From a virus (taxonomy: Duplodnaviria; Caudoviricetes), in the IMG/VR virus record IMGVR_UViG_3300036761_000980, positions 1 to 55,879 of that record: 55,879 nucleotides of DNA. The stretch is one strand, 5' to 3'. Below the pieces are notes generated by a model. The model ran no database searches and was not told the origin of the DNA. It worked only from the letters and a program-made list of their open reading frames with translations. A program made the position numbers and the translations under genes. Below, piece by piece: positions 11,711-55,473 of this stretch; position 1 is the first letter of the stretch, and each line of letters begins with the position of its first letter.

Positions 11711-11721
11711 TAAAATATAAA

Positions 11722-11880
11722 ATGGAAACGAACTTAAAATTTAGAGTGTATTATGATGACAGTATTGATAATGTGATTATCGATATTGCAAAAAGATTAG
11801 AACAATTTGGATTAAGAATAAAATGGATTCAAGCCGAAAATGACGGCTTTGATGACTACGAGATAGAAAAAATAGAATAA
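11722..11880 (+). CDS. Hypothetical protein (52 aa, not in ORF track)
   Basis: Manual translation METNLKFRVYYDDSIDNVIIDIAKRLEQFGLRIKWIQAENDGFDDYEIEKIE. Confidence 0.6.
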   Translation: METNLKFRVYYDDSIDNVIIDIAKRLEQFGLRIKWIQAENDGFDDYEIEKIE

Positions 11881-31932: not shown

Positions 31933-31963
31933 CTATTTATCTGAAAGTAACTTCAGATAAATG
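31933..31963 (+). promoter_or_regulatory. TATTTAT motif embedded in an 11-bp hairpin covering the fibre-gene start codon
   Basis: ATTTATCTGAA (31935-45) / TTCAGATAAAT (31952-62); ATG at 31961. Confidence 0.65.
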
Positions 31964-34900
31964 GCATTACAAAAGATAAATTGGACGCAAATTGATTCCG
32001 CCCATGTCCCCTCTGGTTTAACTATAGATTTAGGTTCAATACCCACACCAATTGATGGGACGTATACCGAAACCTTATTTATTGGGGAAGATGGTAATGA
32101 AGAAGTACTACATAACTTTTTTTGGTATCTTACTGGTTGTACAGGTAATACCGGAGCATCAGGAGATAGATATAGAACAACATCAACAACACAGCTAACA
32201 ATATCGGGGGGAACACAAACATTAATAGTTGGAACAGGATTATCATATATTCCAGGGCAGTCATTAATCATCGCAAAAGATGGTTACAATTATATGGAAG
32301 GTACTGTTGTCTCGTACACTGGGTCAACAGGAGAAATGATTGGGAATATAACATCATTTAGCGGATCTGGAACATATAATAGTTGGTATGTCAATTTAGG
32401 CGGAGCACAAGGAGCGGATGGAACTTCGGGTACAAGCGGAATATCTGGAACTAGCGGTTCTTCTGGAAGCTCAGGAACATCGGGTTCTAGCGGTTCTTCT
32501 GGAACAAGAGGAACATCCGGATCTTCAGGCTCATCAGGAACATCGGGTTCTCGTGGTACATCCGGATCTTCAGGTTCGTCTGGAACAAGTGGTACATCTG
32601 GTTCATCTGGAACAAGAGGAACATCAGGAACTTCAGGTTCTAGCGGATCATCTGGAACAAAAGGCACGTCTGGAACTTCGGGTTCTAGCGGGTCATCTGG
32701 GTCAAAAGGAACTTCAGGATCAAGTGGTTCGTCTGGAACAAGTGGATTATCCGGAACTTCAGGATCAAGTGGTTCTTCTGGAACAAGTGGATTATCCGGA
32801 ACTTCAGGATCAAGTGGTTCGTCTGGAATTTCAGGATCAAATGGAACATCTGGAACTTCAGGATCGAGCGGGTCTTCAGGGTCATCTGGTACATCTGGAA
32901 TAGATGGTTCTTCTGGAACATCTGGTACAAGTGGTTCGTCTGGCAGTTCTGGAACATCTGGAACATCTGGAACATCTGGAAGTTCTGGAACATCTGGAAT
33001 ATCAGGTACAAGCGGGTCATCGGGTAGTTCTGGAACATCTGGTACAAGCGGTTCGTCGGGTAGTTCTGGAACATCTGGTACAAGCGGGTCATCGGGATCA
33101 AGCGGTACATCAGGATCAAGCGGCACATCAGGTACAAGTGGGTCATCTGGCACAGCGGGCTCAAGTGGATCATCAGGTACGTCGGGGCAAGATGGGACAA
33201 ATTTTGGTACAAGCGGAACATCTGGAACATCTGGAACATCTGGTACAAGTGGTACATCTGGAACGTCAGGTGAACAGGGAATTATTGGGCCCCCAGGATT
33301 AGCTGGAACAAGTGGAACATCAGGAATAGATGGTTCTTCAGGAACATCAGGAATAGATGGTTCTTCTGGAACATCTGGCAGTTCTGGATCATCAGGTACA
33401 TCTGGAACATCTGGCACAACGGGCACATCAGGTACAAGCGGTTCATCTGGCACAGCGGGTTCAAGTGGATCATCGGGTACATCAGGGCAAGATGGTACAA
33501 ACTTTGGCACGAGCGGCACAAGTGGCACATCTGGAATAGATGGATCATCAGGATCAAGTGGAACATCAGGATCATCAGGATCAAGTGGAACATCAGGTGA
33601 GCAAGGAGTTATTGGCCCTCCAGGATTATCTGGATCACATGGAACATCGGGTTCAAGTGGTTCTTCAGGAACATCTGGAATAGACGGATCATCTGGCACA
33701 TCTGGAATAGATGGATCACACGGGACATCTGGTACATCTGGAATAGATGGGTCTAGCGGCACATCAGGATCTTCAGGATCATCGGGTGTTGGTACATCTG
33801 GTACATCTGGTACATCTGGTACAAGTGGAACATCTGGAATAGACGGATCATCGGGATCAAGCGGAACATCAGGAGAACAAGGAGTTATTGGACCACCAGG
33901 ATTATCAGGAACATCGGGTTCAAGTGGTTCTTCAGGAACATCTGGAGTAGATGGATCATCTGGTACATCTGGTACAGATGGAACTAGTGGGTCATCTGGA
34001 TCATCTGGATCATCAGGTGTTGGAACATCTGGAACATCTGGAACATCTGGAATAGATGGTTCATCTGGCACATCTGGAATAGACGGGTCGTCTGGAACAT
34101 CTGGTATAGATGGATCATCTGGAACATCTGGAATAGACGGATCATCTGGAACAAGCGGAACTTCGGGATTTGGGTCATCTGGCACATCTGGGTCATCAGG
34201 TGTTGGTACATCAGGTACAAGCGGAACATCAGGTGAGCCAGGAATTATTGGGCCGCCAGGAGTGCCAGGAACTAGCGGAACATCGGGTTCTTCAGGATCA
34301 TATGGTACTAGCGGAACATCGGGTTCAAGTGGATCTTCTGGAACATCTGGAATAGACGGATCATCTGGAACATCTGGAATAGAGGGGTCGTCTGGAACAT
34401 CTGGTATAGATGGATCATCTGGAACATCTGGAATAGACGGATCATCTGGAACATCTGGATCATCTGGATCATCGGGTGTTGGGACATCTGGGACATCTGG
34501 AACATCTGGCACATCTGGAACAAGTGGGTCATCTGGATCAAGCGGGACATCAGGTGATCAAGGAATTATTGGTCCACCAGGAGTGTCAGGAACATCTGGA
34601 ACTTCAGGGTCTTCGGGAACATCTGGTTCTAGTGGATCATCAGGAATATCTGGATCTAGTGGAACTTCTGGCACTGACGGAACATCTGGTTCTAGTGGTT
34701 CTTCGGGAACATCAGGGTCATCAGGGTCATCTGGAGTAGGTACGTCAGGAACAAGTGGAACATCAGGTGAGCAGGGAGTTATCGGTCCTCCAGGATTATC
34801 TGGATCGCATGGAACATCTGGCTCAAGTGGTTCTTCAGGCACATCTGGAACAAGCGGAACATCTGGAACTTCAGGTTCTAGTGGATCATCAGGAATTGAT

Positions 34901-37900
34901 GGATCTTCGGGCTCATCTGGAACATCAGGTACAAGTGGGTCTTCAGGTTCAGCTGGAACTAGTGGATCGTCTGGATCGTCAGGTGTTGGAACGTCTGGAA
35001 CGTCTGGAACGTCTGGAACGTCTGGAACGTCTGGAATAGATGGATCTTCAGGAACAAGTGGGTCTTCAGGTTCATCTGGAACATCGGGTACAAGTGGGTC
35101 TTCAGGCTCATATGGAACAAGCGGAACTTCAGGATCAAGTGGATCGTCTGGCACAAATGGAACATCGGGTTCTAGTGGATCATCTGGAACATCAGGTTCT
35201 AGCGGATCATCAGGTATAAATGGTTCATCAGGCTCATCGGGAAGTTCTGGCTCAAGTGGGTCTTCAGGATCAAGCGGCTCAAGTGGATCATCAGGATCAA
35301 GTGGATCTTCAGGATCAAGTGGATCTTCAGGATCAAGCGGATCTTCAGGAACCAGTGGATTATCAGGAACATTTGGTACTTCAGGTACTAGTGGTTCATC
35401 TGGGTCATATGGAACGAGCGGGACATCTGGAACTTCAGGAACATCAGGAATTTCGGGGTCTTCAGGAACTTCAGGATCAAAGGGAACTTCAGGAACAAGC
35501 GGAACGTCTGGTACAAGCGGATTACATGGATTATCTGGATCACATGGAACATCTGGTTCAAGTGGTTCTTCAGGAACATCAGGAACATCAGGAATTGATG
35601 GATCAAGTGGGACATCTGGTCCAGGTGGTTCTTCAGGAACATCTGGAATAGATGGATCATATGGAACATCAGGGACATCAGGAGCGTCAGGTTCATCTGG
35701 AGAGTCTGGATCGCATGGAACATCAGGAACATCAGGAGCATCAGGTTCATCTGGAGAATCTGGATCGCATGGAACATCTGGAACATCTGGAACAAGTGGT
35801 ATTTCAGGAGATAAGTATCAAACAACGTCATCTACATGTTTAACTATATCTGGTATAACACAAACACTCACGGTTTTAAGTGGATTATCATATAGCGCTG
35901 GACAATCATTAATTATTGGATTTGACGGGTCAAATTATATGACTGGTACGGTTACATCATATAATCCATCAACAGGAGCAATGGTTGGAAATATTTTATC
36001 TACTGTTGGTTCTGGATTTTATTGCGATTGGGATGTAAACTTAGGAGGGGCTCAAGGCGCTGATGGATCGCATGGAACATCTGGAACTTCTGGTACAAGC
36101 GGATCATCAGGTTCTTCTGGTACAAGCGGATCATCAGGCTCTTCTGGCACAAGTGGATCATCAGGTAGTTCCGGAACATCTGGCACAAGTGGTACATCTG
36201 GAATAGACGGATCATCTGGTACATCAGGATCTAGTGGTTCTTCAGGTTCAAGTGGCGCTGGGGTATCGGGTACAACTGATAATGATTTTTATTATGATAT
36301 TGATACAGATACATTATATGTACCAAATATAACTTTAAATGGTTCGATTATAATTGCAACTAATCTTCCTGTTGGAGATGATAATGGAACTAAAATAGGT
36401 TTAAGTGGTGATACATTTTATGTTGTGACAGGAATTACAACAGGATCATCAGGAACTTCAGGTACATCTGGAGCGTCAGGTTCATCAGGAGAATCTGGAT
36501 CACATGGAACTTCAGGAACTTCAGGAGCATCAGGTTCATCAGGGGAATCTGGGTCGCATGGCACATCTGGAACATCTGGTTCAAGCGGAAGTTCTGGATC
36601 AACAGGTACAAGTGGTTCTAGTGGATCTTCAGGAACGAGTGGTACATCAGGTATATCGGGCACAAGTGGCTCTTCTGGCTCTTCAGGCACAAGTGGAACA
36701 TCCGGATCAAGTGGAAGTTCAGGAACAAGTGGAACTAGTGGTTCATCAGGTAGTTCTGGAACATCTGGCACTTCTGGAACCAGCGGAGCATCAGGAACAA
36801 GTGGTTCTTCTGGATCATCTGGTACTAGTGGATCATCAGGTAGCTCAGGTACAAGCGGATCTTCTGGATCATCAGGCACATCTGGCACTAGCGGATCATC
36901 AGGAAGTTCAGGAACAAGTGGTACATCGGGAACAAGTGGTTCTTCTGGAACATCAGGATCGAGCGGGTCATCTGGAACTTCAGGCACAAGTGGTTCATCT
37001 GGTTCTTATGGTACAAGCGGAACATCTGGTACAAGTGGATCATCAGGATCTTCTGGAACATCTGGAAGTTCGGGATCATCTGGAACATCTGGTACAAGTG
37101 GATCATCAGGTTCTTCTGGCACAAGCGGAGGTTCAGGATCATCTGGGACAAGTGGAACATCTGGAACCAGTGGTTCATCTGGTAGTTCTGGGACAAGTGG
37201 AACATCAGGTTCGTCTGGCAGTTCTGGAACATCTGGTTCATCTGGTAGTTCAGGAACATCAGGTACAAGTGGTTCATCTGGTAGTTCTGGAACAAGCGGT
37301 AGTTCAGGATCTTCTGGCACAAGTGGAACATCTGGTACTAGTGGTTCATCGGGTTCATCTGGAACTAGTGGAACTTCTGGAACATCAGGTATATCGGGCA
37401 CAAGTGGTTCTTCTGGCTCTTCAGGTACAAGCGGGACATCAGGATCAAGTGGAAGTTCAGGTACAAGCGGGACATCAGGATCAAGTGGAAGTTCAGGCAC
37501 AAGTGGGACATCAGGATCAAGTGGAAGTTCAGGCACAAGTGGGACATCAGGAATATCTGGAACAAGCGGTAGTTCAGGATCTTCTGGCACTTCTGGTACG
37601 AGCGGATCTTCTGGTTCATCTGGAACAAGCGGTAGTTCAGGATCTTCTGGTACTTCAGGCACAAGTGGTGGTTCAGGTTCATCTGGAACAAGTGGAACAT
37701 CTGGAACTAGTGGTTCATCAGGTTCATCAGGAACATCAGGCACAAGCGGTTCATCTGGAAGCTCAGGCACAAGCGGAACATCTGGATCAAGTGGATCTTC
37801 AGGAACATCAGGTACAAGCGGTAGTTCAGGTTCGTCTGGTACTTCAGGCACAAGTGGTTCATCAGGTTCATCTGGAACATCGGGTTCGTCTGGTAGTTCT

Positions 37901-39676
37901 GGAACAAGCGGTAGTTCAGGATCTTCTGGTACAAGTGGCGGTTCGGGTTCATCTGGAACATCAGGTACAAGCGGATCATCTGGAACATCTGGTACGAGTG
38001 GCACATCTGGAACATCTGGTACGAGTGGCACATCTGGAAGTTCGGGATCATCTGGAACATCTGGCACAAGTGGATCTAGCGGGTCTTCTGGAACAAGTGG
38101 ATCTTCTGGTACATCTGGAACAAGTGGTTCATCAGGATCAAGTGGCACATCTGGAAGTTCAGGATCATCAGGCACATCTGGAAATTCTGGATCATCTGGC
38201 ACAAGTGGATCTTCTGGTAGTTCTGGAACATCTGGAACAAGTGGGTCTTCTGGGTCATCTGGAACAAGTGGATCGTCTGGAAGCTCAGGAACATCTGGCA
38301 CAAGTGGATCTTCTGGAAGTTCAGGGTCATCTGGCATAAGTGGATCTTCTGGAACTAGTGGGTCAAGTGGATCTTCAGGAACTAGTGGAAATTCTGGATC
38401 ATCAGGAACATCTGGCACTAGTGGATCGTCTGGTACTTCAGGAACATCTGGTACTTCTGGTACAAGCGGATCTAGCGGGTCTTCCGGTACAAGCGGTAGT
38501 TCAGGAACATCTGGAACAAGCGGCACATCTGGATCTAGTGGTTCATCAGGAACAAGCGGATCGTCTGGTAGTTCTGGAACATCTGGCACTTCAGGGACAT
38601 CTGGTATTTCTGGTACAAGCGGATCTAGCGGGTCTTCTGGCACAAGCGGTAGTTCAGGATCATCTGGTACTTCAGGAGTGAGTGGAACATCAGGTTCATC
38701 GGGTAGTTCAGGCACAAGTGGGTCAAGTGGTTCATCTGGAACAAGCGGATCATCTGGTAGTTCTGGAACATCTGGAACAAGCGGTACATCTGGATCTAGT
38801 GGTTCATCTGGAACAAGCGGATCATCTGGTAGTTCTGGAACATCTGGAACAAGCGGCACATCTGGATCTAGTGGTTCATCAGGAACAAGCGGATCATCAG
38901 GTAGTTCCGGAACATCTGGCACAAGTGGTACATCTGGAATAGACGGATCATCTGGTACATCAGGATCTAGTGGTTCTTCAGGTTCAAGTGGTGCGGGTGT
39001 ATCAGGTATAACCGATAGTGATTTTTATTATGACATCGATACAAATACATTATATACTCCTAATATAACATTAAATGGTTCAACTATAATTGCAACTAAT
39101 CTTCCTGTTGGATCCGATAATGGGACTAAAATAAGTTTAAGTGGTGATACATTTTATGTTGTAACAGGAATTACGACTGGTACATCTGGAACATCTGGAA
39201 CTTCAGGAGCATCGGGTTCATCTGGAGAATCTGGATCACATGGAACATCTGGAACTTCAGGTACAAGTGGATCAAGCGGCTCGAGTGGTTATAGTGGTAC
39301 AACATATTCTGGATTTTATTATTTTAATGGATGTTTATACGCTGATTGTGTAATTATAAATGGATCATATAAAATAAATTCAGTAATATTAACAGGTCTT
39401 ACTAGTACAGGATCAACAATTACATTAATATCAAAAACATATTGTAGCGGGGCGTTTTTTGATTATTATGTACAAGATGGGTCTAATATGAGAATAGGTA
39501 CAGTAATGAGTGTTTGGGATGGTACAAATATATCATATACTGATTATTCAACTACGGATATTGGAGATTCATCGCCAGTCTCATTCACTGCTAGTATAGA
39601 TGGATCTAATGTAAAATTAGAAGCAGAGATATCATCTGGAACTTGGACAATAAAACTCGGTATTAGATTAATATAA
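31961..39676 (+). CDS. Giant Gly-Ser-Thr (G-X-Y) collagen-like fibre protein, 2571 aa
   Basis: Roughly 2000 residues of GTS/GSS triplets with Gly every third residue, interspersed GEQGVIGPPG motifs, two duplicated globular modules and a beta-rich C-terminal domain. Confidence 0.85.
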   Translation: MALQKINWTQIDSAHVPSGLTIDLGSIPTPIDGTYTETLFIGEDGNEEVLHNFFWYLTGCTGNTGASGDRYRTTSTTQLTISGGTQTLIVGTGLSYIPGQSLIIAKDGYNYMEGTVVSYTGSTGEMIGNITSFSGSGTYNSWYVNLGGAQGADGTSGTSGISGTSGSSGSSGTSGSSGSSGTRGTSGSSGSSGTSGSRGTSGSSGSSGTSGTSGSSGTRGTSGTSGSSGSSGTKGTSGTSGSSGSSGSKGTSGSSGSSGTSGLSGTSGSSGSSGTSGLSGTSGSSGSSGISGSNGTSGTSGSSGSSGSSGTSGIDGSSGTSGTSGSSGSSGTSGTSGTSGSSGTSGISGTSGSSGSSGTSGTSGSSGSSGTSGTSGSSGSSGTSGSSGTSGTSGSSGTAGSSGSSGTSGQDGTNFGTSGTSGTSGTSGTSGTSGTSGEQGIIGPPGLAGTSGTSGIDGSSGTSGIDGSSGTSGSSGSSGTSGTSGTTGTSGTSGSSGTAGSSGSSGTSGQDGTNFGTSGTSGTSGIDGSSGSSGTSGSSGSSGTSGEQGVIGPPGLSGSHGTSGSSGSSGTSGIDGSSGTSGIDGSHGTSGTSGIDGSSGTSGSSGSSGVGTSGTSGTSGTSGTSGIDGSSGSSGTSGEQGVIGPPGLSGTSGSSGSSGTSGVDGSSGTSGTDGTSGSSGSSGSSGVGTSGTSGTSGIDGSSGTSGIDGSSGTSGIDGSSGTSGIDGSSGTSGTSGFGSSGTSGSSGVGTSGTSGTSGEPGIIGPPGVPGTSGTSGSSGSYGTSGTSGSSGSSGTSGIDGSSGTSGIEGSSGTSGIDGSSGTSGIDGSSGTSGSSGSSGVGTSGTSGTSGTSGTSGSSGSSGTSGDQGIIGPPGVSGTSGTSGSSGTSGSSGSSGISGSSGTSGTDGTSGSSGSSGTSGSSGSSGVGTSGTSGTSGEQGVIGPPGLSGSHGTSGSSGSSGTSGTSGTSGTSGSSGSSGIDGSSGSSGTSGTSGSSGSAGTSGSSGSSGVGTSGTSGTSGTSGTSGIDGSSGTSGSSGSSGTSGTSGSSGSYGTSGTSGSSGSSGTNGTSGSSGSSGTSGSSGSSGINGSSGSSGSSGSSGSSGSSGSSGSSGSSGSSGSSGSSGSSGSSGTSGLSGTFGTSGTSGSSGSYGTSGTSGTSGTSGISGSSGTSGSKGTSGTSGTSGTSGLHGLSGSHGTSGSSGSSGTSGTSGIDGSSGTSGPGGSSGTSGIDGSYGTSGTSGASGSSGESGSHGTSGTSGASGSSGESGSHGTSGTSGTSGISGDKYQTTSSTCLTISGITQTLTVLSGLSYSAGQSLIIGFDGSNYMTGTVTSYNPSTGAMVGNILSTVGSGFYCDWDVNLGGAQGADGSHGTSGTSGTSGSSGSSGTSGSSGSSGTSGSSGSSGTSGTSGTSGIDGSSGTSGSSGSSGSSGAGVSGTTDNDFYYDIDTDTLYVPNITLNGSIIIATNLPVGDDNGTKIGLSGDTFYVVTGITTGSSGTSGTSGASGSSGESGSHGTSGTSGASGSSGESGSHGTSGTSGSSGSSGSTGTSGSSGSSGTSGTSGISGTSGSSGSSGTSGTSGSSGSSGTSGTSGSSGSSGTSGTSGTSGASGTSGSSGSSGTSGSSGSSGTSGSSGSSGTSGTSGSSGSSGTSGTSGTSGSSGTSGSSGSSGTSGTSGSSGSYGTSGTSGTSGSSGSSGTSGSSGSSGTSGTSGSSGSSGTSGGSGSSGTSGTSGTSGSSGSSGTSGTSGSSGSSGTSGSSGSSGTSGTSGSSGSSGTSGSSGSSGTSGTSGTSGSSGSSGTSGTSGTSGISGTSGSSGSSGTSGTSGSSGSSGTSGTSGSSGSSGTSGTSGSSGSSGTSGTSGISGTSGSSGSSGTSGTSGSSGSSGTSGSSGSSGTSGTSGGSGSSGTSGTSGTSGSSGSSGTSGTSGSSGSSGTSGTSGSSGSSGTSGTSGSSGSSGTSGTSGSSGSSGTSGSSGSSGTSGSSGSSGTSGGSGSSGTSGTSGSSGTSGTSGTSGTSGTSGTSGSSGSSGTSGTSGSSGSSGTSGSSGTSGTSGSSGSSGTSGSSGSSGTSGNSGSSGTSGSSGSSGTSGTSGSSGSSGTSGSSGSSGTSGTSGSSGSSGSSGISGSSGTSGSSGSSGTSGNSGSSGTSGTSGSSGTSGTSGTSGTSGSSGSSGTSGSSGTSGTSGTSGSSGSSGTSGSSGSSGTSGTSGTSGISGTSGSSGSSGTSGSSGSSGTSGVSGTSGSSGSSGTSGSSGSSGTSGSSGSSGTSGTSGTSGSSGSSGTSGSSGSSGTSGTSGTSGSSGSSGTSGSSGSSGTSGTSGTSGIDGSSGTSGSSGSSGSSGAGVSGITDSDFYYDIDTNTLYTPNITLNGSTIIATNLPVGSDNGTKISLSGDTFYVVTGITTGTSGTSGTSGASGSSGESGSHGTSGTSGTSGSSGSSGYSGTTYSGFYYFNGCLYADCVIINGSYKINSVILTGLTSTGSTITLISKTYCSGAFFDYYVQDGSNMRIGTVMSVWDGTNISYTDYSTTDIGDSSPVSFTASIDGSNVKLEAEISSGTWTIKLGIRLI
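32419..39290 (+). repeat. 9-nt-period GTS/GSS coding repeat with internal segmental duplications
   Basis: GGAACATCT/GGTTCATCT-type units; ~95 bp identical at 36161-36255 and 38897-38991. Confidence 0.95.
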
Positions 39677-39677
39677 A

Positions 39678-42449: not shown

Positions 42450-42533
42450 TAGTATTAACTTATTCTGTAATTTGTAAAATCATAATTGATAATTAATTCA
42501 TTTACTATATTTATATATTAGTTATGTTATTAT

Positions 42534-45506: not shown

Positions 45507-45548
45507 TAACCATTTCTTTTTATAATAATTTTTTCGTATATTTACGAT

Positions 45549-46778
45549 ATGAAAATATTATTAATTCAAAAATTTTCAATTATAGAGCCTCTTGGTTTAA
45601 TGGTTATTGGAAAAGCAATGATGGATGAGGGACACGATGTTCATTATTATCTTTATCATGGAAAAAGAATACCTCTTTATAATATTGATTTAAGAGATTT
45701 TAATTTGGTGGGATTTAGTACATATACAGGTAATCATATTGAAGTATATGAGGCTTGTAAAGAAGCAAAAAAATATGGTGTAATAACAGTAATTGGAGGC
45801 CCACATGCATCTTTTTTCTATAAAGAATGTAAAGAATATGCTGATTATGTATTCAGAGGTGAAAGTGTATTATCTTTTCCAAATATGGATGATAAAAAAA
45901 TCTATCCATTAGTTAATCCTGATTTGTTAATTCCTGATAGAGAAAATTTTTATTATTATTCGCCGATTCATAGAGATAATCGCATAAAAAATATAATGAC
46001 ATCTTTTGGTTGTCCATTTAGTTGTACATATTGTTATAATTCTCTATACAAAGAACTATATCCTGATGGTAAAGTACGATTAAGAACGGTTGACTCGATT
46101 ATTAAAGAAGCAAATTCATTAGATGCAGAATTAATATATTTCCAAGATGATTTTTTTGGATATAATAAGAAATGGTTAAAAGAATTTAATGAAAAATGGG
46201 GTAAAAGGCCATATCATGCCCAAATGAGAATTGAAACTCTTGATGATGAGAAACTTGATTTATTGATTGATAGTGGGTGCGTTGGTGCCACAATTGCAAT
46301 TGAAACATATGACGAAGAATATAGAGAAAAGGTATTAAAAAGAAAAATGCGAAATGATGTAATTCTTGTAAATTGTAGAAGATTATTGGACGCAGGAATA
46401 AAATTAAGAACAGAACAAATGCTCGGACTTCCAAATACAACATTTGAAGATGAATTAAATTTATTAAAATTAAATTGTCATATTAATCCAACAATTGCGT
46501 GGACAAGTATATTTCAACCATATCGTGGTACAGAATTAGGGGAATATTGCGTTAATAATAATTTATACAACGGAAATAATGAAGATGTTGATGATTCATT
46601 TTTTAAAAATACTGTACTAAATTACCCTAAAGAACGGAAAGAAGAAATAGTAAAATTACAACAAATATTTGCTTTATGCTCGCATATACCAAATGGATGG
46701 GAATATGCCGACCAAATAATAAAACATAATAACGATAATTTAAAAGAACACTTATATTCAATATTGTATAGAACATGA
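45549..46778 (+). CDS. B12-binding radical SAM enzyme (class B methyltransferase-like)
   Basis: EPLGL, VGFS, GGPHA, GE cobalamin-binding domain; GCPFSCTYC CxxxCxxC; FQDD.F. Confidence 0.9.
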   Translation: MKILLIQKFSIIEPLGLMVIGKAMMDEGHDVHYYLYHGKRIPLYNIDLRDFNLVGFSTYTGNHIEVYEACKEAKKYGVITVIGGPHASFFYKECKEYADYVFRGESVLSFPNMDDKKIYPLVNPDLLIPDRENFYYYSPIHRDNRIKNIMTSFGCPFSCTYCYNSLYKELYPDGKVRLRTVDSIIKEANSLDAELIYFQDDFFGYNKKWLKEFNEKWGKRPYHAQMRIETLDDEKLDLLIDSGCVGATIAIETYDEEYREKVLKRKMRNDVILVNCRRLLDAGIKLRTEQMLGLPNTTFEDELNLLKLNCHINPTIAWTSIFQPYRGTELGEYCVNNNLYNGNNEDVDDSFFKNTVLNYPKERKEEIVKLQQIFALCSHIPNGWEYADQIIKHNNDNLKEHLYSILYRT

Positions 46779-49501
46779 AAATATTAGCGCATTGTTCATT
46801 TATAGGCACAACAGGATATGCTAACCACACTAGATCATTTTTTTGTGCATTAAACAAATATCATACTGTTAAAGTACGAAATTTAACTATTGGCAATGGA
46901 TGGAAAGGAATGAACAACACCCCGCACGACGATGAACCATATATTACAAAGGAAATGAAGGATATGTTAATTCTTCAAACTCTTTTCAATAATGATAAGT
47001 CCAGAACGGATTATCCGATGTATGATTATAAGGGTGATTTTAAACCTGATGTACATATCATATTACAAGATATGGATAATTATTATTTTTATGAAAATTA
47101 TGACGGATACAAAATAGGATTTTGTGTTTATGAATCAACAAGATATCCTGATCATTTTTTTCAGCGTTTATCATATTTTGACGAAATGTATGTTCCAACG
47201 CAATGGCAATTTGATTCTCTGGTTGAACAAGGATATCCCATTGAGAAGATTAAAATTGTTACCGAAGGTGTAGATATCGATGTGTTTAAACCTGCAAAAA
47301 AAATTATTAAAAAAGATAAATTTAGATTTTTATTATTTGGTAGATGGGATTATAGAAAATCAACAACTGAAATTATTAAAGCGTTTGGAGAAACATTTAA
47401 AGGTAATAATAATGTAGAACTTGTTTGTTCTGTTGAAAACCCATATCCAAGTGATGAAACACGATCTACCGCCGATAGAATTAAAAAATATAATGTTGAT
47501 TATGATAACATAAAATTTCTTGATTTTGTAAGTAGAAAAGAATATGTTGATTATTTGCAGCAAGGAGATGTTTTTGTTTCATGTGCGAGGAGTGAAGGAT
47601 GGGGATTACCTCTTTGTGAATCAATGAGTTGTGGTACTCCATCAATTTATTCAAATTGGGGAGCACAACTTCAATTTGCCAGAGATAAAGGTATTCCTGT
47701 TAAAATTTCACATATTAGACCCGCAAATATTGGTGATAAAGAAGTTGGCGGCGAATATTGTGAGCCAGATTTTGAAGATCTAGTTGTTCAAATGAAAAAC
47801 GCATATGAGAATTATAATGATTATAAAAAGAAAAGTTTAGAAGAATCAACATTAATACATAATGAATTTAATTGGGATAAAGTTGCAAAAGACGCTTCTA
47901 AAATCTTAGAAAAAAAAACCGATCCGTTTATTTTTGTTACAGCGGGAAATTTAGAATATATGCCGACGATTGAAAAATTAGTGGAATCCCTGAATGAATT
48001 TTCTAAAAATAAGGTTTTAGTATATGGAGTGGATTGTGATGTTCCATTCGAGTCGCCAAATATGATTAAACGAAGAATAAACCCATCTAAACACTCCAAA
48101 TATGATAGATGGTACTGGAAGCAGTATGCGTGTATCGAGTCATTAAATGAGAACTATGATCGTTTTATGTGGATCGATGGGGATGTTGTTGTAAATTATA
48201 ATATCGATACTATTGAGAAATATTTTCCACAAATTGAAAATTATCCATTATCCGATATTCATATACCAGAAGAATTTTCAGGATATTATATAGATGAAAA
48301 TAATAATAATAAAAACCAATTATTTAATGAAAATCTATGTAAATTATGGAATATAAACATTTCAAAGCCATATATGCATATCTGTATGTTTATTTATAAT
48401 AAAAATTGTAAATGGTGGTTTAATGAAATAATCAAGGAATACTTGACAGTTGATTTAAAATTATATGAAACATATTTCCTATGGAACGATGAGAGCATTG
48501 ATAATGGATTAAGGTGGAAATATGGATTTAAAAAACATCTTCCGTTATCTAATTTTGACACATCAGGGTATGATGGCGATGATGGATTTACTAAAGGAGT
48601 AATAAATGATTTTTATAAATTTTGGAACGAACCTGGCCCTCAAAATTTTGATAAAGTTTATGGATATAAATTTATTCCCAAGGATAAAGATCAAATAATT
48701 TATTTTCATGGGAATAAAGATCGTGAAGTTTCAGATAAAATGATTGAATTTATTAAATTTAAAAGAGATAATAATTTCTATCAATCTGAATATTTCTATA
48801 CCGATATTTATAACCTTAAAAATCTTGGAGAAATTAAAGATTTTGAAGGCGGCACAATGGATATTGCAAATAAATGTGGATGGGATTATGCGGTTTATCA
48901 TGAAATATATAATTTAAGGGATTATTACCTCAATCGAGAGAAAAGAATACGCGATGGTGATATTGTTGTTGATTTAGGCGGTAATATCGGTGTATTCACC
49001 AGATGGGCGTATAAAGAGGGGGCGAGTAAGGTAATTACATTTGAGCCCGATAAAAGATATTTTGAATTACTTCAATTAAACTCCGATCCTCGCACTGTAT
49101 TATTTAATGCCGCAATGAGTGATTCAATTGGTACAACCACATTATATGAAAGTGATCATCTTGGAGGATCAAATATTTTAGGGATACTAAATTGTACAAG
49201 AAGTTATAGTGTTAGAACATATACATTAGATTATCTATTTGAAACAGAATTAATTAATAAAATAGATTTTTTAAAAGTTGATATTGAAGGCGCCGAACAT
49301 CAGGTTTTTAAGGGAATATCGGATGAAAATTTAATGAAGATAAAAGCAATAGGAATGGAATATCATAATTGGGGCGGCGTCGATTATACGGAGGAACAAA
49401 GAACAGAGTTTATTAAAAGATTGAATAAATTAGGATTTAATTCACATATTTTATTTCTGGGATCAAATAATGTGCTACAAATGTTATATTTTTGGAGATG
49501 A
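46775..49501 (+). CDS. Three-domain fusion: GT4-like glycosyltransferase + GT-A-like (DxD) domain + FkbM methyltransferase
   Basis: TGYA, GRWDYRK, RSEGWGLPLCESMSCG.P; WKQ...WIDGD.V, YFHGNK; VVDLGGNIG, FEP, LKVDIEGAE. Confidence 0.88.
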   Translation: MKILAHCSFIGTTGYANHTRSFFCALNKYHTVKVRNLTIGNGWKGMNNTPHDDEPYITKEMKDMLILQTLFNNDKSRTDYPMYDYKGDFKPDVHIILQDMDNYYFYENYDGYKIGFCVYESTRYPDHFFQRLSYFDEMYVPTQWQFDSLVEQGYPIEKIKIVTEGVDIDVFKPAKKIIKKDKFRFLLFGRWDYRKSTTEIIKAFGETFKGNNNVELVCSVENPYPSDETRSTADRIKKYNVDYDNIKFLDFVSRKEYVDYLQQGDVFVSCARSEGWGLPLCESMSCGTPSIYSNWGAQLQFARDKGIPVKISHIRPANIGDKEVGGEYCEPDFEDLVVQMKNAYENYNDYKKKSLEESTLIHNEFNWDKVAKDASKILEKKTDPFIFVTAGNLEYMPTIEKLVESLNEFSKNKVLVYGVDCDVPFESPNMIKRRINPSKHSKYDRWYWKQYACIESLNENYDRFMWIDGDVVVNYNIDTIEKYFPQIENYPLSDIHIPEEFSGYYIDENNNNKNQLFNENLCKLWNINISKPYMHICMFIYNKNCKWWFNEIIKEYLTVDLKLYETYFLWNDESIDNGLRWKYGFKKHLPLSNFDTSGYDGDDGFTKGVINDFYKFWNEPGPQNFDKVYGYKFIPKDKDQIIYFHGNKDREVSDKMIEFIKFKRDNNFYQSEYFYTDIYNLKNLGEIKDFEGGTMDIANKCGWDYAVYHEIYNLRDYYLNREKRIRDGDIVVDLGGNIGVFTRWAYKEGASKVITFEPDKRYFELLQLNSDPRTVLFNAAMSDSIGTTTLYESDHLGGSNILGILNCTRSYSVRTYTLDYLFETELINKIDFLKVDIEGAEHQVFKGISDENLMKIKAIGMEYHNWGGVDYTEEQRTEFIKRLNKLGFNSHILFLGSNNVLQMLYFWR

Positions 49502-50160
49502 GTACACTGGATATAATAGCAAATTCATATGGAACAGATAAATCTTCCTATATGCACAATTATTGTGTTAAATATGAAAAATATTTACCATTTAATAGAT
49601 ATGATAATTTAAAAATATTAGAAATTGGAGTATTCCGAGGAGAATCATTAAGAACATGGAAAGATTATTTTTATCGTTCACAAATTATCGGTATTGACAT
49701 ATTACCCGAATGTAAGAACTACAAAGAAGATAGAATTAATATTGAAATTGGATCACAAATAGATGGTAATTTTTTAACTGAAGTTTCAAAAAAACACGGG
49801 CCATTTGATATGATATTAGATGATGGATCACATATGAATTCACATGTAATATACTCATTTGAACATTTATTTCCATCAATTACAACTGGCGGAGTTTATA
49901 TTATTGAAGATTGTACCACATCATATTGGAGTGATTTTGAAGGAGGATATTTGAAAGAAGGAACATCAATGGAATATTTTAAAAAATTAACCGATGATAT
50001 AAATTTTAGAGGATTACAATATGATGTAAACGGAAAGTTTCATCGGTACAGAAAAGAATTGGATCTTATTCCACTTTCACAAGAGCAACAACCATCCTGT
50101 AGAGTAGACATAGAATCAATAATTTTTTTAAACGGAATAATCATAATAACAAAACGATAA
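49498..50160 (+). CDS. Class I SAM-dependent (sugar) O-methyltransferase, MycE/TylE-like
   Basis: YGTDK...H.Y...Y, ILEIGV..GESL..W..YF, GIDI, DMILDDGSH, GGVYIIED. ATG 49498 gives an ATGA overlap. Confidence 0.85.
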   Translation: MSTLDIIANSYGTDKSSYMHNYCVKYEKYLPFNRYDNLKILEIGVFRGESLRTWKDYFYRSQIIGIDILPECKNYKEDRINIEIGSQIDGNFLTEVSKKHGPFDMILDDGSHMNSHVIYSFEHLFPSITTGGVYIIEDCTTSYWSDFEGGYLKEGTSMEYFKKLTDDINFRGLQYDVNGKFHRYRKELDLIPLSQEQQPSCRVDIESIIFLNGIIIITKR

Positions 50161-52310
50161 TGTCACAATTCAACGAAGATATTTTTGTAATCGATTCTTG
50201 GCCAAATAATGAGTCAAGAGAAAATGAGTTAATCACCTTAATAGAGAGATTAAGAATATATGATATACCTATTTTATTAGCTGGCCACTACCCAATTAAA
50301 CCTGAAATACAGAAAATGGTAGATTATTGCCTTTATGATAGAAACAATCCATTGTTAATTACTGATGAATTTGCGGATTTTGGCGTTAATAGTGTCAGGT
50401 GGTCAGATACGAAGGATTTTCGTATTGAAAATCTTCGTGAATATCATCATGATTATGCGGTATGGCAAACAATGAAAAATGCTTTTAATTTTTCTAAATA
50501 TCTTGGTAAAAAATATATTCATTTTATAGACGATGATAATTTACCGCATCCTATACAGTATCGCCAGACATTTTTAGAAAGAATTAGAGATTTCGATGTG
50601 GTTATTACTGAGTACGATGAAGGTTCGTCATTAATAACAAATGAAAAACCTTATTGTACAACATATATCTTTTCAATTAGAACAGATATCGCGGTGAAGG
50701 TATTTGACACAATAAAAACTAAAGATGAATTCTTTCGTAATAAGCCAGATAGATGGCAATTAGAGAAAAATTTTTTAAATTCGGCTCGAAAAATTACTAA
50801 TAGTATCTATGTTTGTAAATACATTCCCAATAATAATGAATTAAACAGACACGCAGTATGGGAAAGGCCAGGAATGGACAGAAATAGAATGGATATTCAA
50901 CTTTACTTAGCAGTTAACGATATTGATGATTTATATTTACATACTATTTCAGGCGGCGATTACTTAATAGAAGTGTCCTATGGAAATTATAAAAAATTTC
51001 ATAATGTAACGAAGAATAGTATGCTTGTTTATGAGTTAGGTAAATATCAGCAAGGGAATACAATATTTGTATATTATCAGGGCACGGAAATATATAATAA
51101 TCATTTAGATTATGATATTAATAAATTTCGAGGATTAAATAAAATAATAAGAAAAACGGAAACGCCAAAAGAAATGAATAACACACCCCCAGAAATAAAA
51201 ATAAATTTTCTTGACGGAGCATTTGTCGAAATTAAAGAACAGATGAACAGAATATATCGTGTTCAGTTTATTAATAAAAGAAATAATCAAATTGATTTCG
51301 AATTAGATTTAAAAAGTAATCATTGGGCCAGATGTAGTAAAAAATATTATATCAATTGGTTGATAAGAATACAAGGTATCGATAATGATTTTTATTCTGA
51401 GTATGAAATAAATTTAACAAATAAAAGAGTACTAATTAGTTTTGAATCCAAGTCAATAGGTGATACATTAGCATGGATTCCATATGTTGAAAAATTTAGA
51501 GTTGATCATAAATGTATTGTTATTTGTTCAACATTTCATAATAATTTATTTAAAAATCAATATCCTGAAATTGAATTTGTCGAACCAGGAACAACTGTGC
51601 ATAATGTATATGGACTCTATAGATTAGGAGTCTTTAAAAAAACTGGGTATAAACCAGATCCAAACTCACCTAATGAAGTTGATTATGAAAAACATTTAAC
51701 TGATCCAAAGAAAGAACCATTAACTAAAGTGGCATCAGATATATTGGGTTTAGATTATGTGGAAATCAAACCTAAATTACCTGTATTTACACAAGGAAAG
51801 AAAAAAATAGTTTCTATAGGCACCATCTCGACGGCGCAATGCAAATTCTGGAATAATCCCAATGGATGGCAAGAAGTTGTTAATTTTCTTATTGTAAATG
51901 GATATGAAGTTAAATTACTTTCTAGCGAGCCAGATGGATATATGGGCAATACGAATCCTAAAAATGTAACAAAAATACAAAATAAAAAACTTGAAGAAAT
52001 TTTAAAAATAATCCAAGAATCTGAATTGTTTATTGGTATTAGTAGCGGATTATCATGGTTGGCTTGGGGAACGGGAACTTCCACAATAATTATTTCAGGA
52101 TTTACTGATGATTATGTTGAACCACAAGAAGGTATAATAAGGATAATAAATAAAGAAGTTTGTCATGGATGCTGGGGAAAATATAATTTTGATCCCAGCG
52201 ATTGGCGATGGTGTCCAGTTCATAAAGGAACTGATAGGGAATTTGAATGTACTAAAGAAATTTCATCTAAATCTGTAATTTATGAGATAAAATTAATTCT
52301 AAAGTTATGA
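50160..52310 (+). CDS. TibC/Aah-like autotransporter O-heptosyltransferase domain fused to an N-terminal GT-like domain
   Basis: RVLISFES.SIGDTLAWIPYVEKF, STAQCKFWNNPNGW..V, FIGISSGLSWLAW, ISGFT, and CHGCW...FD..DW.WCP.H....FEC Fe-finger cysteines as in TibC. Confidence 0.85.
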   Translation: MSQFNEDIFVIDSWPNNESRENELITLIERLRIYDIPILLAGHYPIKPEIQKMVDYCLYDRNNPLLITDEFADFGVNSVRWSDTKDFRIENLREYHHDYAVWQTMKNAFNFSKYLGKKYIHFIDDDNLPHPIQYRQTFLERIRDFDVVITEYDEGSSLITNEKPYCTTYIFSIRTDIAVKVFDTIKTKDEFFRNKPDRWQLEKNFLNSARKITNSIYVCKYIPNNNELNRHAVWERPGMDRNRMDIQLYLAVNDIDDLYLHTISGGDYLIEVSYGNYKKFHNVTKNSMLVYELGKYQQGNTIFVYYQGTEIYNNHLDYDINKFRGLNKIIRKTETPKEMNNTPPEIKINFLDGAFVEIKEQMNRIYRVQFINKRNNQIDFELDLKSNHWARCSKKYYINWLIRIQGIDNDFYSEYEINLTNKRVLISFESKSIGDTLAWIPYVEKFRVDHKCIVICSTFHNNLFKNQYPEIEFVEPGTTVHNVYGLYRLGVFKKTGYKPDPNSPNEVDYEKHLTDPKKEPLTKVASDILGLDYVEIKPKLPVFTQGKKKIVSIGTISTAQCKFWNNPNGWQEVVNFLIVNGYEVKLLSSEPDGYMGNTNPKNVTKIQNKKLEEILKIIQESELFIGISSGLSWLAWGTGTSTIIISGFTDDYVEPQEGIIRIINKEVCHGCWGKYNFDPSDWRWCPVHKGTDREFECTKEISSKSVIYEIKLILKL

Positions 52311-52350: not shown

Positions 52351-52500
52351 ATGAAAGTTAAATCAATTTTAATATCAGAAAAAACACATGAAACATTAAA
52401 AAAATTTTGTAAGGAAAATTCGTTAATTTTAGGTAATTGGGTTGATAAGGTTATTTCAGAAGTAATAAAAGAAAAAGATGAAAAGAAAGATAGAAAATGA
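52351..52500 (+). CDS. Small ribbon-helix-helix-like protein (49 aa, not in ORF track)
   Basis: MKVKSILISEKTHETLKKFCKENSLILGNWVDKVISEVIKEKDEKKDRK; ATGA overlap with the downstream endonuclease. Confidence 0.78.
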   Translation: MKVKSILISEKTHETLKKFCKENSLILGNWVDKVISEVIKEKDEKKDRK

Positions 52501-53291
52501 ACGAATATATAAGATTATGTCCTTCTTGCGGAAAGGAAATAAAATATAAAAATAAAAGTCATTGTATTAGAGCAGATATAAAAAATTCAATATGTCAGGA
52601 ATGTCAACAAAAAAAATATCAATCAATTGAAAAATTTATAAGGAATTGTCCTATTTGTGATAAAGAAATAAAATATAAGGATAACATATCTTATGAACGA
52701 AGTATTAAAAAAGATCGGCCATGTTTATCTTGTTATTCTAAAATAGGAGAATATGAAAATAAAACAAATATAAGAAATTGTCCCATATGTAATAAAAAAA
52801 TAATCTATTCTAACAAATATAAATGTAATTACGCTAATTTAAAAAAATCGGAATGTCGTTCTTGTTCAAAATCAGGAGAAAAAGCTCCACTATATGGAAG
52901 AATAGGTGAAAAACACCATAACTTTGGTATAAAATTGACGGATGAACAAAAACAAAAAATGAGATTATCAAAAATGGCACATTTAAAAAAATGTTATGGG
53001 CAATTATCTCCGTTTTATAATCCTCTTGCTTGTCAATATTTTAATAAATTAATGGAAGAAACAAACACGCATATACAACATGCCGAAAACGGTGGTGAAT
53101 TTTATATTCCCGAATTAGGATATTGGGTGGATGGCTATGATGAAATTAATAATGCAATATATGAATTTGATGAAAGACATCATTTCGACGCTTTTGGTAA
53201 TTTAAAAGATAAAGACATACGCCGTCAAAATGAAATCGTGAAATTATTAAAATGTCAATTTCATAGAATAAAATTTAATATGGTATCATAA
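52497..53291 (+). CDS. Homing-endonuclease-like protein: tandem Zn ribbons + NUMOD3-like + PD-(D/E)XK/Vsr-like nuclease
   Basis: Three R.CP.C.K.I.Y...C..C repeats; G.KLTDEQKQKMRLS; GYWVDGYD...IYEFDERHH...D..RQ.EI. Confidence 0.75.
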   Translation: MNEYIRLCPSCGKEIKYKNKSHCIRADIKNSICQECQQKKYQSIEKFIRNCPICDKEIKYKDNISYERSIKKDRPCLSCYSKIGEYENKTNIRNCPICNKKIIYSNKYKCNYANLKKSECRSCSKSGEKAPLYGRIGEKHHNFGIKLTDEQKQKMRLSKMAHLKKCYGQLSPFYNPLACQYFNKLMEETNTHIQHAENGGEFYIPELGYWVDGYDEINNAIYEFDERHHFDAFGNLKDKDIRRQNEIVKLLKCQFHRIKFNMVS

Positions 53292-53303
53292 ATTAAGAAC
53301 TGT

Positions 53304-53486
53304 TTAGGGAACGGTTATCTCGTTTAATTTATTTACAATATTCTCAACCTCTTGTGCTGGCACAACTGTTGACGGCAATGGCGCTGGCTTTGATTTTATT
53401 TCACCATTTTCCACATATGTGATTCTTGCTGGTTGTTGTGCTGGTGATACTATTGTTTTTTTACCTTTACATCCGCATGGACTCAT
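53304..53486 (-). CDS. Small hypothetical protein with N-terminal CGC
   Basis: 60-aa ORF; ATATTTAT upstream on the minus strand (53501-53508). Confidence 0.6.
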   Translation of the reverse strand: MSPCGCKGKKTIVSPAQQPARITYVENGEIKSKPAPLPSTVVPAQEVENIVNKLNEITVP

Positions 53487-53508
53487 ATTAATCTTTTTTA
53501 ATAAATAT

Positions 53509-53540
53509 TTTGTTTTCTAATTTATTTTAGTTTATCTTTG
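53509..53540 (+). promoter_or_regulatory. Bacteroidota primary-sigma promoter
   Basis: TTTG 53509-12, 20-nt spacer, TATCTTTG 53533-40. Confidence 0.7.
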
Positions 53541-53578
53541 TACCAATATTAACAATATTAAACCTAAAAGTAAAGTAA

Positions 53579-54223: not shown

Positions 54224-54260
54224 AAATCATATTTATATAAAAAGTAAGATATTTATTAAT

Positions 54261-54422
54261 ATGGGAAGGGAAAAAATAAATCCTCGTAATAAAAAAGTCA
54301 GGGCGACAATTACTATTGATCCTAAAATCGAAAAAATGATTAAGGAATTACATATTAATTTGTCATCTCTGGCAAATGATTTACTATTGAAATATTTTGA
54401 CGAAAAAAAGACGATATACTAA
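54261..54422 (+). CDS. Small CcdA-like ribbon-helix-helix protein (53 aa, not in ORF track)
   Basis: MGREKINPRNKKVRATITIDPKIEKMIKELHINLSSLANDLLLKYFDEKKTIY; clear paralogue of 11929..12090; overlaps the GIY-YIG start. Confidence 0.82.
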   Translation: MGREKINPRNKKVRATITIDPKIEKMIKELHINLSSLANDLLLKYFDEKKTIY

Positions 54423-55402: not shown

Positions 55403-55473
55403 ATTGATAAATATTTGGAAATATAAATAATTTTCCTTATATTTCATAGTATAAAATCAATAGAAGAAAATAT

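Follow-up and report, generated by a model that had tools for sequence, protein, structure and literature searches.

A putative phage glycosylation cassette with a TibC-like enzyme from a clade linked to Ser/Thr-rich collagen-like fibres

The single viral record IMGVR_UViG_3300036761_000980 (Caudoviricetes; 55.9 kb, analysed over all its 55,879 nucleotides and referred to below as the window) carries seven plus-strand open reading frames (ORFs) that lie end to end at 31961-52310. Two of them encode proteins with collagen-like (Gly-Thr/Ser-Ser)n repeats, and the last encodes a relative of the TibC/Aah (BAHT) enzymes, which glycosylate autotransporter proteins. We found that the TibC-like enzyme belongs to a clade, called clade A below, whose genes are linked to Ser/Thr-rich collagen-like genes in viral contigs and in bacterial genomes. 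Clade A has not been described before as a branch of this family, which is known to glycosylate proteins; a full-text literature search, outside which most subscription papers fall, returned no report of phage BAHTs or of a link between BAHTs and collagen. The gene content of the block, the conserved catalytic residues, the recurrent domain fusions and the genomic linkage were all obtained directly. Taken together, they make it probable, in our judgement, that the block encodes a soluble cassette that glycosylates the phage's own (Gly-Thr/Ser-Ser)n fibres in the cytoplasm of the host, ahead of virion assembly or in the course of it.

TibC-like genes co-occur with Ser/Thr-rich collagen genes

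The first-pass annotation of this DNA had proposed co-occurrence of GTS-repeat and TibC-like genes across phages as a check on its idea of virion glycosylation, and a lack of it as grounds for refuting that idea. Such co-occurrence is strong, in both search directions and in two independent collections, and the idea is supported. In the fibre-first direction, viral contigs were scanned with a DNA pattern for GTSGTSGSSGSSGTSG, resulting in 76 full loci on 57 contigs, and with a control (Gly-Pro-X)5 collagen pattern, resulting in 80 loci on 76 contigs; the control collagen loci were scanned with the window's own domains. An ORF was counted as Ser/Thr-rich collagen if it had at least 15 triplets in runs of at least 8, with Ser plus Thr at 0.6 or more. 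A TibC-like gene was present in the locus in 14 of 53 contigs with such an ORF compared to 0 of 80 without it (Fisher test, P = 7.9e-7), and both TibC-like positives that came from the control pattern also hold giant GTS/GSS genes. Enzyme and fibre gene lie 39 bp to 12.4 kb apart and occur in both orientations, and the TibC-like sequences form 20 clusters at 60% identity. When the whole records of 12 locus-negative contigs were searched, the enzyme was found elsewhere in 4 of them; for records at least 66% complete the figure is 3 of 5, versus 0 of 5 control records. The GT9 proteins of loci L064 and L088 were considered as TibC-like candidates, rejected by BLASTP and not counted as positive. 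The GTS-repeat DNA pattern was also seen in L016 and L089, contigs labelled as giant-virus metagenome-assembled genomes (GVMAG).

The enzyme-first viral set comprised 12 loci, the cultured Microcystis phage Mel-JY01, two huge-phage records and the window, giving 13 non-identical rows. A Ser/Thr-rich collagen ORF lies in the fetched flank of the enzyme gene in 7 of the 10 rows that fall in clade A; of the three rows without one, two are truncated by the end of the contig. None of the three remaining rows, which come from huge phages (32% identity) and fall in a second clade, B, has such an ORF. These distant phage BAHTs (L011-L013) were considered as part of the same system and rejected: they belong to clade B and sit in complete or near-complete records without the GTS pattern. 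L011 and L013 are viral contigs of 329 kb and 255 kb, and their flanks and those of L012 show no Ser/Thr-rich repeat gene.

To cover bacteria, a profile of single-domain relatives was used, which retrieved 80 loci from species-representative genomes; two loci with matches shorter than 300 residues were left out. In unrooted trees of 106 non-identical TibC-like segments (FastTree and quick IQ-TREE) the family splits into clades A and B with a support of 100 in both. The window enzyme falls in clade A, not grouped with the TibC type, as does every enzyme found via the fibre pattern (15 of 15 rows). A Ser/Thr-rich collagen ORF lies within 10 kb in 19 of 27 clade A genome loci versus 0 of 51 in clade B (P = 3.3e-12), and six of the eight clade A exceptions are contigs shorter than 10 kb. 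Since related sequences share traits, these statistics are evidence of association and not of independence.

Clade B is the classical type, with a TibC_1st domain in the enzyme followed by AIDA-type autotransporters (Enterobacter, Kosakonia, Paraburkholderia, Succiniclasticum); the Enterobacter TibC-like protein, a member of this clade, scores 558 bits against the TibC structure 4rap. Clade A bacteria are Methylococcales, Arenicellales, other Gammaproteobacteria and a metagenome-assembled Pseudobdellovibrionaceae genome. Their enzyme genes are located among housekeeping genes and adjoin genes for small proteins with a signal peptide or lipobox and (GTS)n, (GSS)n or (GTT)n repeats, some of which end in poly-Asp tails (Table 1). 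By analogy with the BAHT-autotransporter pair, which it mirrors, the bacterial pair could be a minimal module of enzyme plus substrate.

The TibC-like enzyme retains the BAHT catalytic residues

The enzyme is the second half of a 716-aa protein. It had been described before as a TibC-like ORF with iron-finger cysteines, and all four cysteines are indeed present; what had been overlooked is an extra N-terminal domain of 334 aa (the N-domain). The TibC-like domain aligns over the whole TibC protomer (4rap residues 15-379, 177 bits) and scores 263.3 bits (cut-off 200; residues 341-712) against TIGR04414, the NCBIfam equivalog for Aah/TibC. TibC_1st (PF21129), which clade B proteins do match, gave no match in the window at E <= 0.01; phmmer still aligns residues 15-97 of TibC to residues 335-420.

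Asp435, Thr558, Lys562 and Trp633 correspond to Asp110, Thr226, Lys230 and Trp305 of TibC. The TibC structural study describes Asp110 as the catalytic base and the other three as donor contacts (PMC4358343). Cys668, Cys671, Cys685 and Cys697 of the putative iron finger align with TibC Cys339, Cys342, Cys358 and Cys370. We counted conservation over 145 sequences, the window and 144 close relatives: the positions of Asp110 and of Trp305, which binds heptose O4, are invariant (145 of 145 each), that of Lys230 is kept in 144, that of Thr226 is Thr in 132 and Ser in 13, and each iron-finger cysteine is kept in 141. The position of Pro300, tied to stereoselectivity in TibC, is Ser in the window, as it is in Aah (PMC4358343). 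As judged from these alignments, the catalytic machinery and the architecture are BAHT-like.

By analogy, we propose that the TibC-like domain would be the initiating protein O-glycosyltransferase. In PMC4358343, TibC is reported to transfer heptose from ADP-heptose to Ser, not Thr, at Ser residues adjacent to Gly, to be active on peptides in vitro, and to form a dodecameric ring that acts in the cytoplasm and deals with long repetitive substrates. Because TibC, as described there, uses only Ser, Ser would be a likelier acceptor than Thr in the fibres (949 Ser residues in the large fibre and 142 in the second repeat protein).

The N-domain was modelled with AlphaFold2 (AF2) from an alignment of 29 sequences, the window and 28 homologues. 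In the model (pLDDT 91.1) residues 2-236 are predicted to adopt the GT-A, or nucleotide-diphospho-sugar-transferase, fold, followed by a beta-sandwich. A DDD motif is found at 124-126, with D126 nearly invariant. Foldseek matches to the model are of GT-A fold (E ~1e-5) and include domain 1 of A064R (2p73). VIA-align gave Z 15.2 (root-mean-square deviation 3.5 A over 179 residues) to mannosylglycerate synthase 2bo7 and Z ~14.5 to the nucleotidyltransferases IspD and GlmU. Since the fold is common to such nucleotidyltransferases, assignment as a glycosyltransferase is an inference from the model; the N-domain is probably a second-step glycosyltransferase.

TibC-like domains are recurrently fused to other glycan-modifying domains

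Scanning of 1.84 billion cluster representatives for the TibC-like domain resulted in 1451 clusters at E <= 1e-3 and 700 at E <= 1e-30. Fusions were surveyed in the 150 closest clusters at 50% identity, all of which score at least 278 bits, compared to 177 bits for the window against TibC. The domain stands alone in 67 of them; in the others it is fused, in many orders, to GT4, N-domain, FkbM, MycE-like and GT8-like domains, the same kinds that the window encodes as separate units. In Mel-JY01 a 1227-aa protein consisting of GT4, N-domain, MycE-like and TibC-like parts is encoded beside a GTS-collagen gene and is annotated merely as 'methyltransferase FkbM'. Viral contig L007 has a 2859-aa fusion with a TibC-like domain. 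The recurrent fusions with the TibC-like domain argue for action of these activities on one product.

In the Mel-JY01 record (L001, PP395634.1) a plus-strand ORF with 202 Gly-X-Y triplets, open at the record start, occupies 1-3052. It overlaps two annotated minus-strand hypothetical coding sequences (1-651 and 739-2298), which look like antisense artefacts.

The proposed acceptors are Ser-rich collagen-like proteins

The 2571-aa fibre protein, which we propose as the main acceptor, contains 698 Gly-X-Y triplets, 296 of them GTS and 266 GSS, with Ser at the Y position in 600 of 698; in total it has 949 Ser and 389 Thr residues. The triplets form five blocks of up to 852 residues, separated by a 77-aa and a 60-aa domain that each occur twice, and the protein ends in a 123-aa C-terminal domain. 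The 77-aa domain is kept at 35-57% identity in Ser/Thr-rich collagen genes of other phage contigs, and both inserts recur in such genes, LR756501 included. As in collagens (PF01391), the Gly-X-Y periodicity runs uninterrupted over long stretches.

At the DNA level, the tandem units of the repeat are degenerate (67-97% matches). Ser is encoded by both codon families (TCN 676, AGY 211), GTS is spelled by 44 different 9-mers and GSS by 51. Thus, the repeat is more than a DNA microsatellite and is under selection at the protein level. Long ORFs of 611-740 aa also run inside the repeat gene, at 32290-34512 (minus strand), 36504-38339 (plus strand) and 37006-38922 (minus strand), with Pro/Asp/Val-rich or Glu/Leu/Gln/His-rich products. 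Such overlapping and antisense ORFs arise from the 9-nt periodicity and risk being miscalled as genes.

The structure of the repeat may be read in another way, which we regard as unlikely: the fibres would be glycosylated and their repeats would be extended, mucin-like 'bottle-brush' spacers, with Gly periodicity resulting from growth of 9-nt repeats. The structure of the acceptor and the role of the glycan would then be altered and the enzymology left unchanged. The composition of the fibre speaks for it, with Ser and Thr at 86% of X and Y positions, Pro at ~1% and few charged pairs: the known stabilisers of bacterial and viral collagen helices, Pro/Hyp and Lys-Gly-Asp/Glu salt bridges as listed in PMC11923368, are absent from the fibre repeats. 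So do the bacterial versions, which are short tails of secreted or lipoprotein-like proteins ending in poly-Asp, and the period of every tandem repeat, a multiple of 9. The same fibre nevertheless has Gly at every third position over ~700 triplets despite the degenerate DNA and the two Ser codon families, and it is similar to interrupted collagens in its interspersed G-E-Q-G-I-I-G-P-P-G motifs and its conserved globular inserts. Phage fibres are also typically trimeric, which counts against extended spacers. Since the usual stabilisers are absent, folding of the repeats as a collagen helix would need another one, for example glycans; PMC11923368 indicates that glycosylated Thr can substitute for hydroxyproline and that Ac-(Gly-Pro-Thr)10-NH2 forms a triple helix only if its Thr is galactosylated. 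The repeats may be triple-helical.

The second repeat protein, of 990 aa, is proposed as a second acceptor. It has 47 GTS/GSS triplets at residues ~43-185 and 142 Ser in the whole protein; after the triplets come Gly-rich repeats of the form 'GGDVxIxGG ... S/T loop ... GGxVxIxGG', and then a C-terminal domain. These repeats raise the question of whether the TibC-like enzyme acts on a virion segment other than the triplets, namely the Gly-rich repeats of the 990-aa protein or the Ser/Thr-rich inserts of the fibre. Classical BAHTs recognise a strand-loop-strand motif on a beta-helix (as in the name of TIGR04414 and in PMC4358343), units of the type 'GGDVWIVGG-SSSNTTGET-GGDVWIIGG' recall the beta-helix acceptor of AIDA/TibA, and the 60-aa and 77-aa inserts do recur. 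Still, what accompanies clade A enzymes in both phages and bacteria is the GTS/GSS repeat, the bacterial partners having only a small non-repeat domain besides. Neither the Gly-rich nor the C-terminal region in the 990-aa protein has a homologue in the other fetched loci, and we rejected the Gly-rich repeats as a general, conserved acceptor on that account. We consider action on such other segments improbable.

The 923-aa protein encoded between the two repeat genes has a FISUMP domain at its N-terminus and, in addition, a cadherin-like one. It probably has a binding function in association with the fibre; no homologue of it was found in any fetched locus.

The gene block and its tailoring enzymes

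All seven ORFs behind the first-pass annotation were recovered at their coordinates on the plus strand, and domain matches bear out, gene for gene, what it had given: two GTS/GSS fibre genes and an adhesin, followed by a B12 radical SAM enzyme, a GT4 + GT + FkbM fusion, a MycE-like enzyme and the TibC-like protein (Table 1).

Table 1. Location of the cassette genes and domains in the window and of related features in other loci
Feature	Location	Strand	Supporting match or remark
2571-aa fibre protein	31961..39676	+	Pfam Collagen E 3.5e-262; PHROG tail-fibre families
923-aa protein, N-terminal FISUMP + cadherin-like domain	39678..42449	+	Fib_succ_major E 1.6e-29; Cadherin E 5.8e-16; TIGR02145
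990-aa collagen-plus-Gly-rich protein	42534..45506	+	Pfam Collagen E 2e-12
B12-binding radical SAM enzyme, 409 aa	45549..46778	+	Pfam B12-binding (PF02310) E 2e-13; Radical_SAM (PF04055) E 1e-17
908-aa fusion ORF, GT4 + middle domain + FkbM	46775..49501	+	Pfam matches
GT4 domain, residues 1-385 of 908-aa fusion	46775..47929	+	Glycos_transf_1 E 2e-16; phrog_2170 E 3.8e-40
Middle domain, residues 386-700 (315 aa) of 908-aa fusion, possibly GT8-like GT-A	47930..48874	+	weak GT8 lead
FkbM methyltransferase domain, residues 701-908 of 908-aa fusion	48875..49501	+	Methyltransf_21 E 3e-17; TIGR01444 84.9 bits (cut-off 37.7)
MycE/TylE-like sugar O-methyltransferase, 222 aa	49492..50160	+	3ssm (MycE) E 2.6e-33; Pfam Methyltransf_24
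716-aa protein, GT-A domain fused to TibC/Aah-like enzyme	50160..52310	+	two halves
N-domain, residues 1-334 of 716-aa protein	50160..51161	+	AF2 model
TibC/Aah-like BAHT (GT9-related) domain, residues 335-716 of 716-aa protein	51162..52310	+	PDB 4rap E 3.7e-51
Small repeat proteins beside clade A genes	L316:11187-12065; L332:11267-11890; L329:8522-8917, 11178-11786; L309:12022-13623		
2OG-Fe(II) oxygenases (PF13640), ~200 aa	L037:4034-4630; L056:8577-9158; L200:6354-6962		beside collagen-like genes
Large GT4 + GT25 (+ OGFOD2-like) fusions	L063:4510-7522; L200:6977-9361		

The radical SAM enzyme has the features of class B, an N-terminal B12-binding domain and a radical SAM core with the CxxxCxxC motif (CPFSCTYC). 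Its nearest solved structure is the sugar-modifying AprD4 (6fd2, E 6.6e-15), and every NCBIfam match is far below its cut-off; we propose that it modifies a sugar, by C-methylation or deoxygenation, or a peptide. A homologue of the window's radical SAM enzyme (32% identity) lies within 10 kb of the TibC-like gene in L385, a clade B locus of a metagenome-assembled alphaproteobacterial genome. In contig L066, which has no TibC-like gene, a run of five radical SAM genes (1533-6160) is found within 6 kb of a Ser/Thr-rich collagen gene.

Within the 908-aa fusion, the GT4 domain belongs to a type repeatedly fused to TibC-like domains in relatives. The middle domain has no Pfam match; its protein-atlas features point to viral hypothetical families and to GT8 at 0.91, a lead only, and two homologous copies of it are found inside the 2859-aa fusion of L007. 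The MycE-like enzyme, whose match to 3ssm spans residues 7-180, also matches demethylmacrocin O-methyltransferase (8ia9, E 8.8e-28) and is without the N-terminal oligomerisation domain of MycE (chain residues 1-184).

The ORFs are separated, in order, by 1, 84, 42, -4, -10 and -1 nt. Scans of the window found 93 promoter-like sites (95 expected from shuffles) and 3 terminators (5.1 expected), no excess in either case, so that an operon structure rests on gene spacing. G+C content climbs from ~0.29 to 0.47 across the repeat genes. A late gene block of the structural module is the best explanation for the region.

In another reading, the enzymes would remodel the lipopolysaccharide, capsule or S-layer of the host, or would produce a methylated glycan, free or linked to lipid, that might serve superinfection exclusion, and the fibre genes would be neighbours by chance; this seems to us very unlikely. 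The GT4, GT9, FkbM and MycE-like families are admittedly common in lipopolysaccharide, capsule and natural-product pathways, PHROGs classes the GT4 domain as 'moron, auxiliary metabolic gene', and phage glycosyltransferases are often interpreted in this way, as in PMC10202952 and PMC12619734. Yet none of the seven cassette proteins has a membrane-type hydrophobic segment, and no flippase, polymerase or polyprenyl-phosphate transferase was found among the domains and proteins of the window. Moreover, the nearest characterised enzyme is a protein O-glycosyltransferase, and a specific two-way link to Ser/Thr-rich collagen, seen neither at other collagen loci nor in clade B, would be unexpected.

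Elsewhere the window encodes phage replication and recombination functions: a primase, an SbcCD-like nuclease, a sigma factor, Dam-type methylases and a cell-wall amidase. SbcC identity to the closest isolates is only ~24%. No tRNA genes and no autotransporter, AIDA or ESPR domains were found in the window, and the TibC-like protein, the radical SAM enzyme and the FISUMP protein are all without a PHROGs family. At 1-4404 a 5'-open ORF of at least 1467 aa carries a right-handed beta-helix domain (PF13229, E 3.5e-16) and is probably a tail spike or depolymerase. On the 3' side of the cassette, 52497-55878 holds genes for a Cys-rich NUMOD3-like protein, a DNA methyltransferase (phrog_24333), a GIY-YIG homing endonuclease and a second Dam-type methylase, open at the window end.

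A proposed course of fibre glycosylation

In the mechanism that we favour, with acceptor, order of steps, sugar identities and biological role assigned by analogy, the TibC/Aah-type GT-B enzyme of the collagen-linked clade would put the first sugar on Ser of G-X-Ser-Gly repeats. The donor would be a nucleotide sugar made by the host, ADP-heptose if the host makes it and another one otherwise. The fused GT-A, GT4 and GT8-like domains would then add more sugars. FkbM-type and MycE-like methyltransferases would O-methylate them, and the radical SAM enzyme would make a change at the carbon level. The product would be a densely glycosylated fibre, whose glycans may stabilise a Pro-free helix, shield the fibre, mediate adhesion, or do several of these. 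The collagen helix rises ~0.29 nm per residue; with triple-helical repeats, the length of the fibre would be ~0.6 micrometre (694 triplets in long runs x 3 residues x ~0.29 nm). Stabilising or shielding the fibre is the probable purpose, by analogy with the folding of galactosylated-Thr peptides, the methylated glycans of PBCV-1 and the glycosylation of Mimivirus collagen.

Several observations weigh against fibre glycosylation by the cassette. No TibC-like gene is present in the locus in 39 of the 53 contigs with a Ser/Thr-rich collagen ORF, and 34 of these 39 loci have no glycosyltransferase within 6 kb either (Pfam, 177 neighbour proteins), glycosyltransferases being found in only 5. In two of the more complete records, G003 (84%) and G017 (98%), the enzyme is absent from the whole record. 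Conversely, no Ser/Thr-rich collagen lies near the enzyme in LR756504 or in L321 and L323, full-length clade A genome loci. The contrast between clades A and B may reflect a single evolutionary event. In neither the window nor 17 related loci was a gene for nucleotide-sugar synthesis found, and the viral loci compared lack a counterpart of the radical SAM gene. Finally, where TibC has Arg286, whose contact to adenine underlies ADP-sugar specificity, the window has Ile614, and only 37 of 145 sequences have Arg; PMC4358343 describes the contact, to adenine N1, as weak. With the adenine-reading Arg replaced here and variable across the clade, heptose would be one candidate among others for the first sugar.

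That the cassette and the Ser/Thr-rich collagen genes are functionally unrelated and merely mark one group of aquatic phages, co-occurring by descent, is scarcely credible to us, since the relatedness of the tested sequences, the T4-like structural genes that several contigs have in common and the clustering of the trait on the tree are offset by the same pair in ordinary bacterial chromosomes, as a minimal enzyme and small-repeat-protein module, and by phage pairs that vary in orientation, in distance (39 bp to ~12 kb) and in fusion form across 20 clusters at 60% identity.

Comparison with known systems

Glycosylation of the fibres by their neighbouring enzymes would be closest to E. coli TibC-TibA and Aah-AIDA-I. 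In common with these are homology over the whole protomer, the same Asp, the same Lys/Thr/Trp contacts and the four-Cys finger, as well as a soluble enzyme encoded beside a very long, Ser-rich, repetitive surface protein in which many modified sites are expected. In contrast to TibC and Aah, the window enzyme belongs to a separate clade, gave no Pfam hit to TibC_1st and has not kept the adenine-contacting Arg; its partner is a (GTS)n collagen-like protein and not an AIDA autotransporter, its clade is often fused to glycosyltransferase and methyltransferase domains, and it is encoded by a phage.

In work that PMC12619734 attributes to Freeman et al. 2023, mycobacteriophage glycosyltransferases are reportedly thought or shown to decorate the C-termini of the phages' own capsid and tail-tube subunits. 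The cassette would likewise decorate structural proteins of its own phage; its target, however, would be a repeat fibre that offers hundreds of sites, and glycosylation would be initiated by an enzyme of another family. Bacillus anthracis BclA and Riftia cuticle collagen are rich in GXT, and their O-linked glycans, some of them methylated, replace hydroxyproline. Their acceptor is Thr at the Y position and their transferases are others, whereas Y is Ser in 600 of 698 fibre triplets here.

As related in PMC9614988, PBCV-1 builds methylated sugars on its virion protein with A064R, which has two glycosyltransferase domains and a methyltransferase, and a separate methyltransferase, A061L. The layout parallels the fusion of GT4, GT8-like and FkbM domains that is followed by the MycE-like enzyme. 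PBCV-1 differs in being a eukaryotic virus with N-linked capsid glycans, without sequence-level relationship to the cassette and without a BAHT-type enzyme or a collagen acceptor.

Mimivirus L230 is described in the same review as hydroxylating Lys and glucosylating hydroxylysine on collagen-like proteins of the virus (PMC9614988). Likewise, the cassette would be a virus-encoded set of enzymes for virus-encoded collagen-like proteins, and related phage loci carry oxygenase and GT25 genes beside collagen genes; unlike in Mimivirus, the window has no oxygenase, its repeats are almost without Lys or Pro, and linkage to Ser is proposed. Prolyl-hydroxylase-type 2-oxoglutarate-Fe(II) (2OG-Fe(II)) oxygenases are found in the collagen neighbourhoods of L037, L056, L063 and L200, and GT25, the collagen galactosyltransferase family, in those of L063 and L200 (Table 1). 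This set looks like a second collagen-modification system in tailed phages, resembling L230. Related phage neighbourhoods also contain GT2, GlcNAc-transferase and DXD glycosyltransferases, a PIG-L deacetylase, and FkbM, FtsJ and CmcI-type methyltransferases, all beside tail sheath and fibre-chaperone genes.

Implications

Our observations can be extended, tentatively and with somewhat more doubt than conviction, to clade A as a whole. It would then be a widespread glycosylation system of phages and bacteria dedicated to (Gly-Thr/Ser-Ser)n repeats, which would yield Pro-free, glycan-stabilised rods or bottle-brush fibres of up to ~0.6 micrometre, with methylated oligosaccharides in phages, and many aquatic phages would carry a self-made glycan coat on their fibres. 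The cultured phage Mel-JY01 and the minimal two-gene modules of bacteria make the idea directly testable.

If confirmed, BAHT glycosylation would no longer be specific to autotransporters and would be a general way to decorate Ser-rich collagen-like repeats. It would add to the mycobacteriophage case a second, much larger class of phage self-glycosylation, and it would explain the stability of collagen-like fibres that have almost no proline or charged residues. The combination of a clade A enzyme and a GTS repeat gene would provide a sequence rule for predicting glycosylated fibres in metagenomes.

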